IMG/VR virus record: IMGVR_UViG_2534681673_000006
Coordinates: 1 to 15,337 of that record
From: a virus
Taxonomy: Duplodnaviria; Heunggongvirae; Uroviricota; Caudoviricetes
Reading direction: 5' to 3' (one strand)
Length of the DNA: 15,337 nt
In this document: positions 7,876 through 15,337 of the stretch, piece after piece
How positions within the stretch are numbered: position 1 is the stretch's first letter
Layout of the letters: the number at the start of each line of letters is the position of its first letter
Translations under genes and position numbers: made by a program
The notes under the pieces: model-generated
What the model was told of the DNA's origin: nothing
Seen by the model: only the letters and a program-made list of their open reading frames with translations
Databases searched by the model: none

Positions 7876-8148
7876 TTAGCTGTCTGTGTAATTACGCCAT
7901 ATTTCATCGCTTACACCATCCATACCCATTTCAGCATAAGTGCGATCGACTGCCTTTCTCAGGTCTCCGAAGTTATCCGGCGGCTCCGGTGGCCTCTGTG
8001 CCTTCCTGGAACATTCCAGCCGTCGCATCGTAACCTGATGCCGTTCCTTGTCTGTCTCCACCAGTTGCATGACTTCACCCCATCGCGCCGCCGCCCTCCG
8101 GTAAAAGCCTTTTGCCTCGAGTTCCTCCGCTATGCGGTCATGTGCCAT
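7876..8148 (-). CDS. Small regulator-like protein, 90 aa, possibly PerC-family (tentative)
   Basis: Start at ATG 8148 with GAGGGGG SD, 10 nt after the SSB stop. IAEELEAKGFYRRAAARWGEVM resembles, from memory, PerC-type small activators. Last gene before the head-operon control region. Confidence 0.45.
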   Translation of the reverse strand: MAHDRIAEELEAKGFYRRAAARWGEVMQLVETDKERHQVTMRRLECSRKAQRPPEPPDNFGDLRKAVDRTYAEMGMDGVSDEIWRNYTDS

Positions 8149-8158
8149 CGTCACCCCC

Positions 8159-8569
8159 TCAGAACGGAATATCATCACCGTAAGGGTCATCGCCTCCCGC
8201 TGGTGGCTGATTACCCTGTGTGCCTGTGGCTTTGCGTCTGTTCCCGCCAGGACGTGCCGCGCGGGCACTGATTACGCTGTCCGCAATAACCTGATACCCC
8301 TGCCGTGTTTCCCCGTTCTGTCCGGTCCACTGGCTTACCTGCATCGTGCCGGATACGCTGGCAACATCGCCTTTTTGATGTTTAGCCAGGAAATCGGCCT
8401 GTTTGCCAAATGCGATAACCGATAACCATAACGTCGCCTGTCCGTCATGTGCCTGGCTGCATGGCAACGATACCGCCATACGCGCCAGAGTCATCGGTGT
8501 GCCCTTGCTGCTCTGTTTTACCAGCGGGTCGTCCACCAGCCGCCCGTAAGCTGCAATTTGTGCTGTCAT
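8159..8569 (-). CDS. ssb: Single-stranded DNA-binding protein
   Basis: 136 aa; N-terminal OB-fold pattern (IAAYGRLVDDP...WLSVIAFGKQADFLAKHQKGD...VSQWTGQNGETRQGYQVIADSV), Gly/Pro-rich linker and the canonical acidic tail DDIPF. GAGGTGG SD. Confidence 0.85.
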   Translation of the reverse strand: MTAQIAAYGRLVDDPLVKQSSKGTPMTLARMAVSLPCSQAHDGQATLWLSVIAFGKQADFLAKHQKGDVASVSGTMQVSQWTGQNGETRQGYQVIADSVISARAARPGGNRRKATGTQGNQPPAGGDDPYGDDIPF

Positions 8570-8578
8570 ATTGCCACC

Positions 8579-8884
8579 TCAGTGAAGCGATCCGGCGTTG
8601 TTCTTTTTCATCTCTTCCATCATTTTTTCAGTGAGCATTACGCACTGAAAACCCATGCTTTTGATGTCTACGGGTTTCATGCCTTTGTCTGTGGATATCA
8701 CAGGCAGAATATCCTGATACACATCGCGGTCAGGGTAACTAAGCACACAAAGCGCCCATGATGCCACGGGTGAGGATCCTTCGTCTGTTTCAACCCACCA
8801 GCCTGGTGTAGCTGCGCTTATTTGCAGAATCGTGATCCGTCCGTTGTGCTTGTAAAATTTTTCACCAAATTTTGGTTCGCTCAT
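8579..8884 (-). CDS. Hypothetical protein, 101 aa
   Basis: ATGA overlap with the upstream gene and strong GGAGAGGTGG SD. No recognisable domain. Confidence 0.55.
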   Translation of the reverse strand: MSEPKFGEKFYKHNGRITILQISAATPGWWVETDEGSSPVASWALCVLSYPDRDVYQDILPVISTDKGMKPVDIKSMGFQCVMLTEKMMEEMKKNNAGSLH

Positions 8885-9132
8885 GATTCCACCTCTCCGG
8901 TTTTAACGTTGATTGTTGTTACCTGTTCCGCTTCGGCAATCTCCCGTTCTGTCAGCGTGGCAAAGTTTGCCGCCGCTGTGGTCATGAATGCGCTTATCAG
9001 TTCGGGATGCTCCTTCGCGTATCCTTCCCCCGCGTGGCGGTCTATCGTTCTGATTGCCACCTTTAAAGCGTGCTCTGTCATGTCTAACGCTTTATATTTT
9101 GGCTGTGTTCTGTCTCTGCGTTTTTGTGTCAT
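8881..9132 (-). CDS. Hypothetical protein, ~83 aa (start uncertain)
   Basis: Start taken at ATG 9132 (GGGGAG just upstream) because the longer ORF to 9327 would run through the iteron array. ATGA-coupled to the downstream gene. Confidence 0.4.
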   Translation of the reverse strand: MTQKRRDRTQPKYKALDMTEHALKVAIRTIDRHAGEGYAKEHPELISAFMTTAAANFATLTEREIAEAEQVTTINVKTGEVES

Positions 9133-9145
9133 CTCCCCACCTATA

Positions 9146-9335
9146 CCCACTTTTACCCCCCACTTTTCACAATTCCCCATCTCGTTAAAGGCGTGGGATT
9201 TGTAATTTTTATCATGCTGTTTCATAAGGATTTTTTTGCTCCCCACTTTTTGGGATGTATACAGGTCAAAAAGTGGGGGATTGTGTTTAAATTTTGTTAA
9301 ATTCCCCATACCCACCACTTTTGCCACCCACTTTT
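9146..9335. repeat. Iteron array (CCCACTTTT, at least 6 copies, both orientations); candidate replication origin
   Basis: Copies at 9146, 9159, 9242, 9269 (inverted), 9314 and 9327, including a perfect IR ccccacttttt-17 nt-aaaaagtgggg. AT-rich spacers. Directly downstream of the replication ATPase stop (9335). Confidence 0.55.
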
Positions 9336-10318
9336 TACAGTGGCCCTACATCATCGCCGTCAACATAGATAACGCCGTCTTTTTCCAGCTTGCCCAGCCA
9401 GCGCCGGAAGTGCTTTATTTCGTACCCCAGTTTTTTCATGTCATCACGTAACAGCGGGATCGTGCACTTGTCGCCGTTCTGTGTGCGTGAACGGATACAC
9501 CCCCATAGCGCGGTATGGTTTTCCGTCTTGTTGCCTGCCTCTTCGATGCGCTCCAGTTCAACGGGAGGGCGCGGCTTATCCACCACCACCAGCGACGAGA
9601 TTAACTCCCCGTCAGCGTCGGTAAAAAGCTCCACCACCCGCAAATCATAGGCAGCCTCTTTGAGTTCCTCCGCGTCCTTCATTTTGGTGCATGAGATAAC
9701 CAGCGCTTCGCTTCCTGCGTCCTCCCTGCGTATCCGGTATTCAGCATCCAGCGAAGCACGAAATGCACTGGAACCGCGCGCGCCTTTCGTCTCATCCTTG
9801 CCGGAATGGTGAACCACCAGCACCGTGGCCCCTGTGCGTCGTTTCAGTTCGTCACAACCACGGATAAACGCCCCCATATCACGGGAATCATTTTCATCAT
9901 TCCCACCAAAGCAACGCGCCAGCGTATCCAGAATAATCATGCGTACAGGTTTACCCGTTTCCCGCTCCACCTGACGGGCAGCGATAACCATTTCATCAAC
10001 ATCAAGCGGGGCAGCCGGAAAGATGGGGCGGTTTACCAGATACAGATTTTTCACCTGCTCATCGTGCACAACCTCCCAGGCTTTTACACGACGCGGAACA
10101 CCTATACCGCCTTCACCAACCACATAGAGAACCGCACCATGTGCAACCCTGCGGCCTCCCCACTGGCGACCAGTGGCAACATGGCACGCCCACGATCCGG
10201 CAAGGAATGATTTATAGGACCCGCTAGCCCCGTATATGCTGCATAGCGATACCGCCGGAATAATCCCCTTAACCACGTAATCCAGTTGCGTGTCATATCC
10301 GGTAGATCCAACGCTCAT
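9335..10318 (-). CDS. Replication ATPase, AAA_25 / RepA-like (RecA-fold helicase or loader) with C-terminal winged-helix-like domain
   Basis: 327 aa; Walker A GASGSYKS, Walker B MIILDT, VVHHSGKDETKGARGSSAF motif typical of AAA_25 proteins. ATGA overlap with upstream gene. Confidence 0.75.
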   Translation of the reverse strand: MSVGSTGYDTQLDYVVKGIIPAVSLCSIYGASGSYKSFLAGSWACHVATGRQWGGRRVAHGAVLYVVGEGGIGVPRRVKAWEVVHDEQVKNLYLVNRPIFPAAPLDVDEMVIAARQVERETGKPVRMIILDTLARCFGGNDENDSRDMGAFIRGCDELKRRTGATVLVVHHSGKDETKGARGSSAFRASLDAEYRIRREDAGSEALVISCTKMKDAEELKEAAYDLRVVELFTDADGELISSLVVVDKPRPPVELERIEEAGNKTENHTALWGCIRSRTQNGDKCTIPLLRDDMKKLGYEIKHFRRWLGKLEKDGVIYVDGDDVGPL

Positions 10319-10734
10319 CGGTAGCGTGGTTTTTCGCTGGTGGTTTTTTCTTCCGCCGGCTCTTTCCCGCGCACCCGTTCCAGGTATTCGCGCCAGTTCT
10401 CCCGCATATGGCTGTGCATCCCTTCGGGGTAATAATTCGCATCAGTTACACCCGCCGCCGCCAGCTTGTGCGCAATGGCATTAATATTTGATGGCCTGAT
10501 GTGGCCTGCCTTGTACAGCCGGACACAATAGCGCCCCTCGTCGATGATTCTCAGGTCTGCCAGTTCATCCAGTTGATCATCAGCCAGCACAACGGGAGGC
10601 ACATTATCGCCAGCCAGTCGCCCGTCCTGTTCCTGCCACTGTTTCGCATGTGCCCAGGCATCACTACCCGCAAAAATAATGACTTCGGTCATCTTGTCGT
10701 AAGGCTGTTTTTTTAAGTTCGGTGCGCTTTTCAT
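10315..10734 (-). CDS. Hypothetical protein, 139 aa, translationally coupled to the replication ATPase
   Basis: ATGA overlaps at both ends. No recognisable domain; position suggests a replication accessory role. Confidence 0.5.
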   Translation of the reverse strand: MKSAPNLKKQPYDKMTEVIIFAGSDAWAHAKQWQEQDGRLAGDNVPPVVLADDQLDELADLRIIDEGRYCVRLYKAGHIRPSNINAIAHKLAAAGVTDANYYPEGMHSHMRENWREYLERVRGKEPAEEKTTSEKPRYR

Positions 10735-12223: not shown

Positions 12224-12279
12224 TGTGCGCACAGATTAAAATCATATGTGCGCACAGATTAAAATCATATGTGCGCACA
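12224..12279. promoter_or_regulatory. Operator array: three copies of perfect palindrome TGTGCGCACA in 23-bp tandem repeats, in the divergent promoter region
   Basis: Palindromes at 12224-12233, 12247-12256, 12270-12279; repeat unit tgtgcgcacagattaaaatcata. A partial half-site tgtgcgcc sits at 12317-12324 near a candidate TTAACA-17-TATTGT promoter for the RHH gene. Confidence 0.55.
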
Positions 12280-12353
12280 TGTCAATACTTAACATCTCAT
12301 TTTTTTTGCTGTATTGTGTGCGCCCATAAAGTCCATTTAAGTGAGGTGCATCA

Positions 12354-12551
12354 ATGTCTAGCGGTAACACAAACAACAAATCAGCAAAGAAAAATATTCG
12401 ATTCCCACATGAGCTTATAGATGGGATTGATGCCAGCGTTGAACAAGAAAAATTAACTAATCCTAGTGCTAATTTTTCCGCATGGGTCTTAGATGCCTGT
12501 GGACGCAAATTAAAATATGAACAGCGCCGGAAGGCCAAAGAATCAGAATAA
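12354..12551 (+). CDS. Ribbon-helix-helix (CopG/Arc-like) DNA-binding protein, cassette 1
   Basis: 65 aa; GAGGTG SD 5 nt upstream. KNIRFPHELIDGIDASVEQEK...SANFSAWVLDACGRKL fits an RHH strand-helix-helix. Paralogous to the 13113-13292 protein. Confidence 0.65.
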   Translation: MSSGNTNNKSAKKNIRFPHELIDGIDASVEQEKLTNPSANFSAWVLDACGRKLKYEQRRKAKESE

Positions 12552-12600
12552 TCACTATCAGCGCCGTGGTGTGAGGTACTACGGCGCATTGCTTTACAGG
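12527..12600 (+). repeat. ~74-bp near-identical junction element (second copy 13268-13341) spanning the RHH gene 3' end and a hairpin
   Basis: aaggccaaagaatcagaataat(c/t)actatcagcgccgtgg(t/c)gtgaggtactacggcgcattgctttacagg. Stem gcgccgtgg/ctacggcgc with a GAGG-containing loop. Confidence 0.55.
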
Positions 12601-12608
12601 GCAGTAAC

Positions 12609-12836
12609 ATGACCAACAACACACTATCACCAATACAAGACACGCAAACGCAAGATGATGAAATCATCCGGCAAAGGCAGTCAGAAGCCTGCGCCAGACT
12701 TGAGGAAGAACTAACCAGAACAAAAATACCACCACCAGCGCCGCGCTTAGTTCCACCAGAAAAATTTGCCCTTGAAGATTTTGTCGATAAATACCCACGG
12801 CGGCTTAAATCCGGCAAAAACCGACCGCCAGGATGA
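12609..12836 (+). CDS. Small partner protein, cassette 1, 75 aa, unknown function
   Basis: Starts MTN; C-terminal motif FALEDFVDKYPRR is shared with the cassette-2 partner (FVLDEFLKKYSR). Proline-rich middle. No known domain. Confidence 0.5.
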   Translation: MTNNTLSPIQDTQTQDDEIIRQRQSEACARLEEELTRTKIPPPAPRLVPPEKFALEDFVDKYPRRLKSGKNRPPG

Positions 12837-12999
12837 GTGCACAAAACCGAACTATGAAACGGATTATTCCGTTTCCGGGGCGTTTGTGTGTGTATAAAGA
12901 GTAAGCTATGCTCTTTTATAGCCATAATCGTTACCTCAATTAATGGTTTGGTTAGACGCCCCGTATGTGTTCCCATCACTGCGGGGCGTTGTTGTTTTG

Positions 13000-13092
13000 G
13001 GTGTATTTCACCTTTATTTTTAAATCTACATTCAGGTGAAATACACCGCAAGACTTTTTTTATCTTTTTTTTTGCGTATACTGAAATACACC
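13000..13092. promoter_or_regulatory. Operator/promoter of cassette 2: perfect 13-bp inverted repeat ggtgtatttcacc / ggtgaaatacacc plus a third half-site overlapping a TATACT -10
   Basis: Arms at 13000-13012 and 13035-13047 (22-bp spacer); tgaaatacacc at 13082-13092 directly after TATACT (13077-13082). AGGAG SD follows. Confidence 0.55.
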
Positions 13093-13112
13093 GATTATCA
13101 GGAGAACCAGAA

Positions 13113-13292
13113 ATGGCAACAGGTGCAAAGAACGCAAAATCACAAATGACAACGGTCAGAATCCCGCATGAGGTAATGACCGATATTGAGCAACTTAAAG
13201 AACCTGGCGAAAGTACCGCCGGATTTCTAGTTACGGCAGCAAAAGGCGAGATCAAACGCCGCCAGCGCCGCAAGGCCAAAGAATCAGAATAA
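13113..13292 (+). CDS. Ribbon-helix-helix DNA-binding protein, cassette 2
   Basis: 59 aa from ATG 13113 (AGGAG SD). TTVRIPHEVMTDIEQLK...TAGFLVTAAKGEIKRRQ is paralogous to cassette 1 with divergent DNA. Shared C-terminus RRKAKESE. Confidence 0.65.
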   Translation: MATGAKNAKSQMTTVRIPHEVMTDIEQLKEPGESTAGFLVTAAKGEIKRRQRRKAKESE

Positions 13293-13349
13293 TTACTATC
13301 AGCGCCGTGGCGTGAGGTACTACGGCGCATTGCTTTACAGGTACACACA

Positions 13350-13553
13350 ATGACCAATAAAGAATCAACCAATACACCATCGCAAAAAACGAACAGAGAG
13401 CACGAAAATATGGCGCTCGAGCATGAATCAGAAAGATTCGCTCCATGCGCTTTTGTCCTTGATGAGTTTCTAAAAAAATATTCACGTTCTGAACGGATGA
13501 AAATGGCAGCACAATACGGCCCCAACAAGCAAGGTAATTGCCCACCAGCCTGA
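13350..13553 (+). CDS. Small partner protein, cassette 2, 67 aa, unknown function
   Basis: Starts MTN; same position relative to the junction hairpin as the 12609 gene; shares the F.L(E/D)(D/E)F..KY.R motif. Confidence 0.5.
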   Translation: MTNKESTNTPSQKTNREHENMALEHESERFAPCAFVLDEFLKKYSRSERMKMAAQYGPNKQGNCPPA

Positions 13554-13621
13554 TCACGGTTATCATGTTCGGGCTTATGATTGTTGACACATACGGCGCA
13601 GCGGGTTAATTGTTCAGAAAG

Positions 13622-13649
13622 GCGGTTCCATATCGGGACCGCTTTTTTT
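13622..13649 (+). terminator. Rho-independent terminator of the plus-strand RHH operon
   Basis: Stem gcggttcc/gggaccgc (8 bp, one G.U), loop atatc, followed by TTTTTTT. Confidence 0.6.
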
Positions 13650-13765
13650 ATGCCTGAAAATACCCTATAGCATGGCTTTTCAGATTCACCAGGGCGAACG
13701 AATCCCCGCCCCTGTACGGGCGTATATTTCATCATGGTTATACCTCAGTATTATGGCGTTTATTC

Positions 13766-14392: not shown

Positions 14393-15337
14393 TTATTTTA
14401 TTCTGGTTACTGGTAGCGTGGTTACGTTTTCATGTGTTCCCGCCAGTATCTCCAACCGCTCCACCCACATATCAAGCGCATTGCGTTTCGCATCAATATA
14501 GCGGGAATGGTTGTACACGCGTTGCATTCCTGGCATCTGGTGGCCTGTAAGCTGCTCCACGACGTGAGGATCAACGCCTAAATCGTTCAGCATGGTTGTA
14601 AAGGTGCGCCGGATGTCATGCAATGACCATTGAGGGTGTTTTAGCCTCCTGTGCGCTAATCTGCCGTACTGCGATACGCTAGCCTCCTGTTTCACTTCCC
14701 CCAGTAATAAGCCCGTGTGCCTGTTCTGGTCCACCAGCCGCGTGACGAACGGCAGGATCGCTTCCGGTATGGGCCGGAATATTGCAACCTTCGTTTTGCT
14801 GTGCTCCTTCGGAACGGTCCATAGCATTTCGGTAAAATCCCACTCGCTGATCTCCGATAACCTCAGTTCTACCGTCCTGGCTCCGAAGACAATCAGGAGG
14901 CGGATTAACGCGACGTAGTAAGGAGAAAATATTTTTTTATCCAGCGCCTGCAATAACTCGCCCAGTTCTTTGGTGCTTAAGACACGTTCGCTTATATCCG
15001 GTTTTTTCCCAACGTCCGCCACGTTCAGATCATCGAGAACGTTGCTGATTGCAAAGCGCCGCCTCCGGCAGAACTTAAGCGCCTGCTTGCATGTCTGTAG
15101 CACGAATCCGGCAGTAACAGGTGTTCGCTTTGCCACCTGGTCAAAACAGGCCAGCCAGTGCCGTAGCTCGCATTTATCCAGCGGCATAGCGCCAATGTAC
15201 TGTATTACGTGATTATTAAGTCGCCTTTTCAGGGCGATATAATCCACGCGGTTTTCCTTTACGTACGACTCAAGCCAGTAGGTGAGCGCATCGCCAACCG
15301 TTACCGGCTTTAACGCTTCCTGTACGGCGTAATTCAT
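14393..15337 (-). CDS. int: Tyrosine site-specific integrase (phage integrase family)
   Basis: 314 aa; core-binding-like N-terminus and catalytic C-terminus with R...HDIRRTF...GHQMPGMQRVYNHSRY (R-H-R-Y signature). ATG sits at the last three bases of the window, so any N-terminal extension cannot be assessed. Confidence 0.85.
   Translation of the reverse strand: MNYAVQEALKPVTVGDALTYWLESYVKENRVDYIALKRRLNNHVIQYIGAMPLDKCELRHWLACFDQVAKRTPVTAGFVLQTCKQALKFCRRRRFAISNVLDDLNVADVGKKPDISERVLSTKELGELLQALDKKIFSPYYVALIRLLIVFGARTVELRLSEISEWDFTEMLWTVPKEHSKTKVAIFRPIPEAILPFVTRLVDQNRHTGLLLGEVKQEASVSQYGRLAHRRLKHPQWSLHDIRRTFTTMLNDLGVDPHVVEQLTGHQMPGMQRVYNHSRYIDAKRNALDMWVERLEILAGTHENVTTLPVTRIK

Follow-up and report, generated by a model that had tools for sequence, protein, structure and literature searches.

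What is the function of the non-coding gap that separates the helicase gene from the next gene in IMG/VR record IMGVR_UViG_2534681673_000006? The gap is ~200 bp long and rich in short repeats. We analysed it in the context of the window, by which we mean the whole 15,337-nt stretch of this record (A+T content 0.49). A preliminary description of the same DNA had proposed an iteron-type origin, bound by its own initiator, immediately downstream of a replication ATPase gene in a satellite element. Our analysis points the same way. Judged from sequence, and with a probability of about 0.85, the gap (9133-9337, minus strand, running from the rep stop codon to the next ATG) is where replication of a capsid-forming phage-inducible chromosomal island (cf-PICI) of E. 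coli starts, as the origin cognate to its Pri-Rep initiator-helicase. Origins of this kind have already been described for PICIs and the present picture of PICI replication is unchanged. New here are a residue-to-base covariation that predicts a specificity determinant, a conserved palindromic centre and a frameshift in the pri-rep gene of the window copy. The analysis also locates the putative origin of a widespread family of phage satellites in E. coli and Enterobacterales. The predicted determinant, His303 reading the seventh iteron base, would be of use for annotating satellite islands, for understanding why islands in one host may be incompatible and for constructing small orthogonal replicons.

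PICIs are elements of ~10-16 kb with a specific attachment site and genes for packaging or interference. The window contains an integrase, a small HTH regulator, pri-rep, packaging genes and an attachment site, and is transcribed in one direction, with all real genes on the minus strand. Genes for the head and packaging encode an HK97-type capsid, prohead protease, portal, head-completion and connector proteins, HNH, TerS and TerL. PerC, SSB and an Icd-like protein are also encoded. A tyrosine recombinase gene (14393-15337, minus strand) lies at the far end of the island. At the other end, positions 1-165 are a fragment of tqsA, which encodes an AI-2 transporter, and the island is inserted in this gene. 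In E. coli RM10042, tqsA carries an island that is 98.7% identical, and an insertion in tqsA is also found in HY220605. The window is a cf-PICI of E. coli; the assumption that the element is a satellite was therefore correct.

Two other genes of the island deserve comment. As listed, the PerC open reading frame (ORF; 7876-8268) overlaps that of SSB (8159-8569) by 110 nt. The Pfam match to PerC covers residues 41-130 only and PerC has 90 amino acids in relatives. Hence, the true PerC start is probably near 8148. A 497-aa ORF (12242-13735, minus strand) sits in a variable region, with the small HTH regulator on one side and the Icd-like gene on the other. It has no match in Pfam, PHROGs, NCBIfam or PADLOC. 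The closest relatives have small plus-strand genes of the YlcI/YnfO type in its place. The ORF may be spurious, or it may be a new gene with an accessory or defence role.

The repeats are built from one 9-bp unit. We found five exact copies of CCCACTTTT, four on the plus strand (9146-9154, 9159-9167, 9242-9250 and 9327-9335) and one on the minus strand (9269-9277). Read on the coding strand, the unit is AAAAGTGGG. Outside the array there are no copies in the 15,337 bases, where 0.17 would be expected by chance, and none of 200 shuffles had five or more. A sixth copy with one mismatch (ACCACTTTT) is at 9314-9322. At least six units had been claimed at the outset, and these six, spanning 9146-9335, agree with that count. 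Weak copies were picked out by eye and are clearer in relatives. These are ATTCCCCAT at 9173-9181 and 9301-9309, and CTCCCCACC at 9133-9141.

The copies form three clusters, and matching copies of these are 83 and 85 bp apart, or ~8 helical turns. The left, rep-proximal pair (9314-9335, minus strand) consists of AAAAGTGGG at 9335-9327 and AAAAGTGGT at 9322-9314, which are 13 bp apart; the weak copy at 9301-9309 would be the third of this set. The first iteron overlaps the rep TAA stop codon (9337-9335). In the centre is an inverted pair (9241-9278). Its 11-bp arms, CCCCACTTTTT at 9241-9251 and AAAAAGTGGGG at 9268-9278, are complementary at 11 of 11 positions. Between the arms are 16 nt, with the palindrome TGTATACA (9256-9263) centred on the dyad axis. 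Hence, the perfect 11-bp inverted repeat on a GTATAC centre, as first noticed, is there. The right, rep-distal set (9133-9181, minus strand) has AAAAGTGGG at 9167-9159 and 9154-9146, again 13 bp apart, and weak copies at 9181-9173 and 9141-9133. The last of these overlaps the ribosome-binding site of the next gene, which encodes 83 amino acids. Between the clusters are two A+T-rich stretches: stretch A (9280-9311; 75% A+T) and stretch B (9182-9240; 68% A+T), the latter a candidate unwinding region. The GC minimum, 0.32, is at 9200-9299. The AT-rich setting given in the preliminary description is thus evident against the 49% of the window. So is the position of the array between the AAA_25 gene, with its stop codon at 9335-9337, and the next gene, with its ATG at 9132.

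We also considered whether the gap is coding. The next gene (8881-9132, minus strand) has no assigned function and bounds the putative origin. Its product, read from the ATG at 9132, matches phrog_1231 over residues 1-83 of 83. The same frame can be extended upstream to a GTG at 9327. Only the window and its 98% twin keep this extension open over 71 codons; other relatives have a stop after 25, 9, 2 or 1 codons. Since the extension is closed in these relatives, and phrog_1231 is matched from end to end, the ORF 8881-9327 is an artefact. We rejected the gap as coding sequence on these grounds, plus-strand ORFs included, and the earlier suspicion that read-through ORFs are artefactual was justified. 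Genes of the phrog_1231 family encode 83-85 amino acids and are 74% identical across islands with unrelated Rep and origin cassettes (8881-9132 in the window and 9285-9542 in locus L007). Because an SSB gene always follows, a role as a replication accessory is possible.

The location of the array agrees with what is known of PICIs. In PICIs from Gram-positive and Gram-negative bacteria alike, the origin directly follows the 3' end of rep and always has two iteron sets flanking an A+T-rich region; the E. coli elements are divided among four Pri-Rep alleles (Fillol-Salom et al. 2018, PMC6092414). In the window, the sets at 9314-9335 and 9146-9167 flank DNA of 68-75% A+T. The best comparison is with EcCICFT073. 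Here, pri-rep-ori maintains a temperature-sensitive plasmid, and deletion of rep or ori abolishes replication (PMC6092414). As in the window, the origin slot of EcCICFT073 is directly 3' of rep and is followed by the 83-85-aa gene, SSB and PerC. The DUF4222 protein encoded upstream of rep is 91% identical to that of the window, and the downstream 85-aa protein is 74% identical. Conversely, the Pri-Rep proteins are unrelated (E = 3). That of EcCICFT073 is a 584-aa protein of the "DNA primase family", whereas the window encodes a RepA-type helicase with a predicted winged helix. The EcCICFT073 gap is 288 bp and has iterons TGTCTACC/GGTAGACA, unrelated to AAAAGTGGG of the window. Because the flanks are conserved while Pri-Rep and iterons are not, rep and the repeats swap as one cassette. 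This is as expected of an initiator and its cognate origin. The window allele also differs in its central inverted pair on a conserved TGTATACA core, and the proof of replication belongs to the CFT073 allele. Within the literature library searched, there was no experimental work on the RepA-helicase allele. Our iteron strings had no relevant match in full texts, nor did the supplements of the 2018 paper, and the paper on capsid-forming PICIs does not mention the origin.

Repeats beside a gene start might instead be operators. Rep or another island regulator could bind the array to control transcription or translation of the 83-aa gene, SSB, PerC and the capsid operon. The overlap of the last weak iteron with the ribosome-binding site of the 83-aa gene fits this idea, as does the place of the array, where the late genes begin in an island transcribed in one direction. 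Furthermore, inverted iteron copies double as autoregulatory operators in classical iteron plasmids. However, a scan of 8800-9600 found no sigma-70 promoter. The one terminator-like site in the same interval is on the non-coding (plus) strand, inside the span of rep, so the coding strand has none. An array downstream of rep is in no position to autoregulate the promoter of that gene, and the homologous slot of EcCICFT073 is needed for replication (PMC6092414). We therefore consider control by operators very unlikely as the main role. Origin function could nonetheless go together with some regulatory side-effect when Rep binds. In addition, an Rfam scan of the whole window gave no match.

Repeats and a palindrome in an intergenic position of a packaged element could also mark a packaging (cos/pac) or recombination site. 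But the array is ~6 kb from terS, HNH and terL, and it travels with rep rather than with the packaging module: head and terminase genes differ widely among relatives that share this rep and origin. As for recombination, the island has its attachment site at its ends, in tqsA. Of all the explanations considered, this is the one that we find hardest to credit. We return to the preferred explanation, an origin for Rep.

If the array is an origin, which protein would act on it? The gene that ends at the first iteron (9335-10318, minus strand) encodes Rep, a 327-aa helicase of the RepA family with a RecA-like AAA_25 motor and a predicted C-terminal winged helix (residues ~262-327). The sole Pfam match of Rep is PF13481 (AAA_25; 149 bits against a cut-off of 27, E = 1e-43) and its RefSeq relatives are named "helicase RepA family protein". 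Immediately upstream, a separate 139-aa ORF (10315-10734, minus strand) encodes the N-terminal, primase-like part of Pri-Rep. The two products align to different parts of one family. Rep covers positions 136-465 of phrog_2850 and the 139-aa product covers positions 1-125; the latter also aligns to a "DNA primase" family. In relatives, both parts are fused as one protein of 465-471 aa. The preliminary description thus needs a refinement. What it called the AAA_25 ATPase makes up the C-terminal two-thirds of Pri-Rep, which is normally a single fused protein of 466 aa and is split here by a frameshift.

The cause of the split is a 1-nt deletion. A run of seven A residues in 25 relatives is a run of six in the window (A6; ~10344-10349). 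Among 31 loci with the same sequence context, only the window and locus L166 have this deletion. Real mutation, slippage and sequencing error are all possible causes. Because pri-rep is frameshifted, the window copy may replicate poorly or not at all. Accordingly, the array could be an origin by descent that no longer functions in this copy, with the island relying on another resident element or having lost autonomous replication. The rare deletion, which leaves 139-aa and 327-aa products in place of the 466-aa protein, is the case for this scenario. Against it, the window copy shows no damage to its iterons, inverted repeat or centre. The helicase keeps its own ATG, and this overlaps the stop codon of the 139-aa ORF (ATGA, 10315-10318), an arrangement that allows translational coupling. 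A 327-aa form has a large cluster of its own, with 967 proteins (P0024), and Salmonella has a similar form (P0024 and P0081). Separate pri and rep genes are normal in PICIs (PMC6092414). Finally, the short run may be a homopolymer error. Loss of function in the window copy is unlikely in our view, though less so than any of the other alternatives.

We examined the structure of Rep by modelling. A search of PDB sequences gave a single weak match, to RSF1010 RepA (1g8y; E = 0.0055). The model of full-length Rep has a mean pLDDT of 61.5 and is poor in places, but the last 65 residues are confident. Foldseek hits for this full-length model were Rossmann-like matches without meaning and were discarded. 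Modelled alone, the last 75 residues fold as helix, helix, helix and beta-hairpin (pLDDT 87.6). The best PDB folds for this segment are all winged-helix: MepR, DtxR/IdeR, LexA, HrcA, PcaR and the MCM8 WH domain. TM-scores were 0.55-0.67 with weak E-values (0.03-0.2), as is usual for a domain of 70 residues. The C-terminus of Rep is thus predicted to be a winged-helix DNA-binding domain. In the model, the third helix, usually the one that serves for recognition, has His303 at its start. True phages also have homologues of the helicase core (33-40% identity), and 11 of the 12 matches listed end at query residue 241-277. These end points are at or before the first helix of the predicted winged-helix domain. 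The twelfth, from a Salmonella contig, is 56% identical and runs to residue 311.

If this domain reads the iterons, changes in one should be mirrored in the other. We compared 6 E. coli relatives, 80 loci chosen as one genome per species (53-71% identity) and 79 IMG/VR loci (82-99% identity). Among the E. coli relatives, the iteron core is either AAAGTGGG or AAAGTGAG. Each origin uses a single variant, and this includes the inverted copy. The Rep C-termini divide likewise, into K-H-F-R-R-W and K-N-F-R-R-W. To extend the comparison, the residue before [F/L/M]-x-R-W was set against N of the iteron pattern AGTG-N-G in 145 pairs of Rep and origin with at least three iteron copies. Asparagine accompanies A (68 pairs), histidine accompanies G (45), lysine accompanies G followed by an extra G (25) and serine accompanies C (7). 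Eight loci have AAAGTGGGC iterons and are concordant under the AGTG-N-G pattern. No discordant pair was found among the 145, a perfect association to which co-inheritance by linkage contributes, since the covarying codon is only ~75 bp from the first iteron. Three comparative features of the region thus support the preliminary description: a position 3' of the initiator gene, iterons flanking A+T-rich DNA and covariation of the iterons with the predicted DNA-binding helix of the initiator in 145 of 145 pairs.

The history of the covariation is informative. On a tree of the helicase core, the His/Asn state switches at least 17 times, and the iteron base switches each time. So many switches on the tree of the Rep core imply mosaic recombination. 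Two pairs of origins, L117/L115 and L134/L159, can be aligned over their whole length. Within each pair, G in one is replaced by A in the other at every iteron, degenerate copies included, while the DNA between iterons is largely unchanged. At the level of sequence, such concerted change across iterons is stronger evidence than covariation across the tree. Two IMG/VR loci (L152 and L156) have hybrid origins. In these, an Asn-type Rep is followed by GTGAGG iterons in the left and central clusters, whereas GTGGGG is found in the last two iterons on the right (180-215 nt after the Rep stop codon). The origin itself has therefore probably been a site of recombination. Such hybrids are exceptions in structure but leave the residue-to-base rule standing.

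A broader interpretation is that Rep and origin make up a family of naturally orthogonal replicons with something close to a one-residue, one-base code. Histidine, asparagine, serine or lysine at the N-terminal end of the recognition helix would set iteron base 7 as G, A, C, or G with an extra G, respectively, and all 6-9 iterons would be re-tuned together. We regard the arguments for and against this interpretation as evenly balanced. If it is true, several islands could coexist in one cell without cross-talk, and the code would offer a simple handle for engineering specificity.

The overall layout is conserved. In nearly all sampled loci, the array is within 330 nt of the Rep stop codon and has the same pattern of clusters. 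Direct iterons follow the stop codon; next come an inverted-plus-direct pair ~25 bp apart, an A+T-rich stretch of 60-75 bp and further direct iterons. We saw this arrangement in loci from E. coli, Xenorhabdus, Pantoea, Kosakonia, Pectobacterium, Serratia, Morganella and Klebsiella. Part or all of a 1.6-kb segment comprising rep, the origin and the next gene is matched in 1,556 of 5,426 complete E. coli genomes, and at least 80% of the segment is present in 631 of the 5,426. The arms of the central repeat vary with iteron class. Conversely, the core CTGTATAYA is kept in the His, Asn, Ser and Lys classes, and TGTATAYA or TATATA is found at the centre of 112 of 127 distinct origins. Because the core is constant while the arms vary, it is not read by the variable residue. 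We take the TGTATACA centre to be a melting nucleus or the axis where two Rep assemblies meet. It is also possible that the centre is a site for a host factor or a hairpin signal. The CTGTATA of the core resembles one half of a LexA box but the other half is absent. In a strict motif search of 9100-9360 we found no DnaA box, IHF site, GATC or LexA box. For a self-loading initiator, the absence of DnaA, IHF and GATC motifs is uninformative either way.

Could the central palindrome work mainly as a single-stranded hairpin, like the ssi sites of an IncQ oriV, or as a cruciform, rather than as a pair of duplex sites? Folded as single-stranded DNA, the central repeat forms a 12-bp hairpin of -11.7 kcal/mol (z = -4.7 versus shuffles). 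Plasmid RSF1010 uses hairpin ssi sites, the helicase of the window is of the RSF1010 RepA family and a primase-like N-terminal domain is present. However, the arms are iterons, and they change with the recognition residue of Rep like every other copy. This fits recognition as duplex. In addition, the centre of the loop is conserved while the arms vary. A role mainly as a hairpin is, in our judgement, distinctly improbable, although a hairpin is compatible with the proposed origin as an extra step.

Known replication systems resemble the proposed Rep origin in different ways. In IncQ plasmids the iterons are bound by a separate protein, RepC, and RepA has no DNA-binding domain. RSF1010 is nonetheless similar to the window in that its helicase core is of the same Pfam family and its origin has iterons and an A+T-rich region. 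The difference is that the helicase of the window is predicted to carry its own winged helix. In classical iteron plasmids (pPS10, F, R6K and RK2), a winged-helix initiator binds direct iterons beside an A+T-rich unwinding element. These initiators have no helicase activity and depend on DnaA boxes and host DnaB/DnaC. Direct iterons by A+T-rich DNA are shared with the window, and inverted copies occur in both. Unlike these plasmids, the window has an initiator that is a helicase, no DnaA box in 9100-9360 and no Pfam match of the Rep_3 type. For SV40 large T antigen and papillomavirus E1, two hexamers of the initiator-helicase assemble on inverted repeats with a palindromic core and A+T-rich flanks. 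Similarity between these origins and that of the window would be a functional analogy, with no homology.

The origins and Rep proteins of SaPIs (Ubeda et al.; Qiao et al. 2022) offer a further parallel. SaPI Rep is a self-loading AAA+ initiator-helicase (SF3/MCM-like) with a C-terminal winged helix that reads iterons (Qiao et al. 2022, PMC9371898). The SaPI origin has at least two iterons on each side of an A+T-rich region, and the two groups run in opposite directions (PMC9371898). The window shares with SaPIs short iterons just after the gene for their own initiator, an A+T-rich centre, pri and rep that may be fused or separate and a winged helix, which is predicted for the window. Two differences are clear. 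First, the outer iteron sets of the window are co-directional, and only the copy at 9269-9277 is inverted, so the strict SaPI description does not apply. Second, the Rep motor is AAA+ in SaPIs but RecA-like AAA_25 in the window, which sets the window helicase apart from that of SaPIs. Given these different motors, the resemblance is analogous rather than homologous.

A model for initiation can be put forward. Based on the covariation and the structural model, the C-terminal winged helix of Rep would recognise the 9-bp iteron AAAAGTGGG, with His303, at the N-terminal end of the recognition helix, reading the seventh base. From the anatomy of the region, Rep would occupy three clusters: two direct copies by the stop codon, the central inverted pair and two to four direct copies on the far side. 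By analogy with SaPI Rep and self-loading viral helicases, binding would then distort and melt the A+T-rich stretches, the TGTATACA centre, or both. By the same analogy, the RecA-like helicase part would be its own loader and form a ring, with two such rings probably placed on the inverted pair. The N-terminal primase-like domain, a separate polypeptide here, may then prime synthesis. A host polymerase would copy the excised circle after induction by a helper phage.

Some loci depart from the common layout. In one IMG/VR locus (L151, 1-45 nt after the Rep stop codon), a natural deletion has brought the rep-proximal and rep-distal iterons together. With the inverted repeat of the centre and the two A+T-rich stretches gone, the locus amounts to a natural delta-ori. 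The deletion looks like recombination between direct iterons. In E. coli L7_E1373_ETEC (L006, 1300-2043), the gap after rep is ~700 bp rather than 200 bp. It has what appears to be a second module of iteron, palindrome and iteron (TTACCTCACTTTTGCGTATATATAAGGATTAAAAAGTGAG), and the origin is possibly duplicated.

One relative is known as a circle. Klebsiella pneumoniae pKp_Goe_795-4 (CP018459.1; L168) is a closed circle of 16,971 bp that has been filed as a plasmid. It is a cf-PICI with an integrase, capsid, terminase, Rep of the Ser class, GTGCGGC iterons and an CTGTATACA centre. The record offers circumstantial support for an episomal form, in which islands of this type can persist or build up as circles. 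The circle also carries a 3.4-kb gene annotated as "tail tape measure protein".
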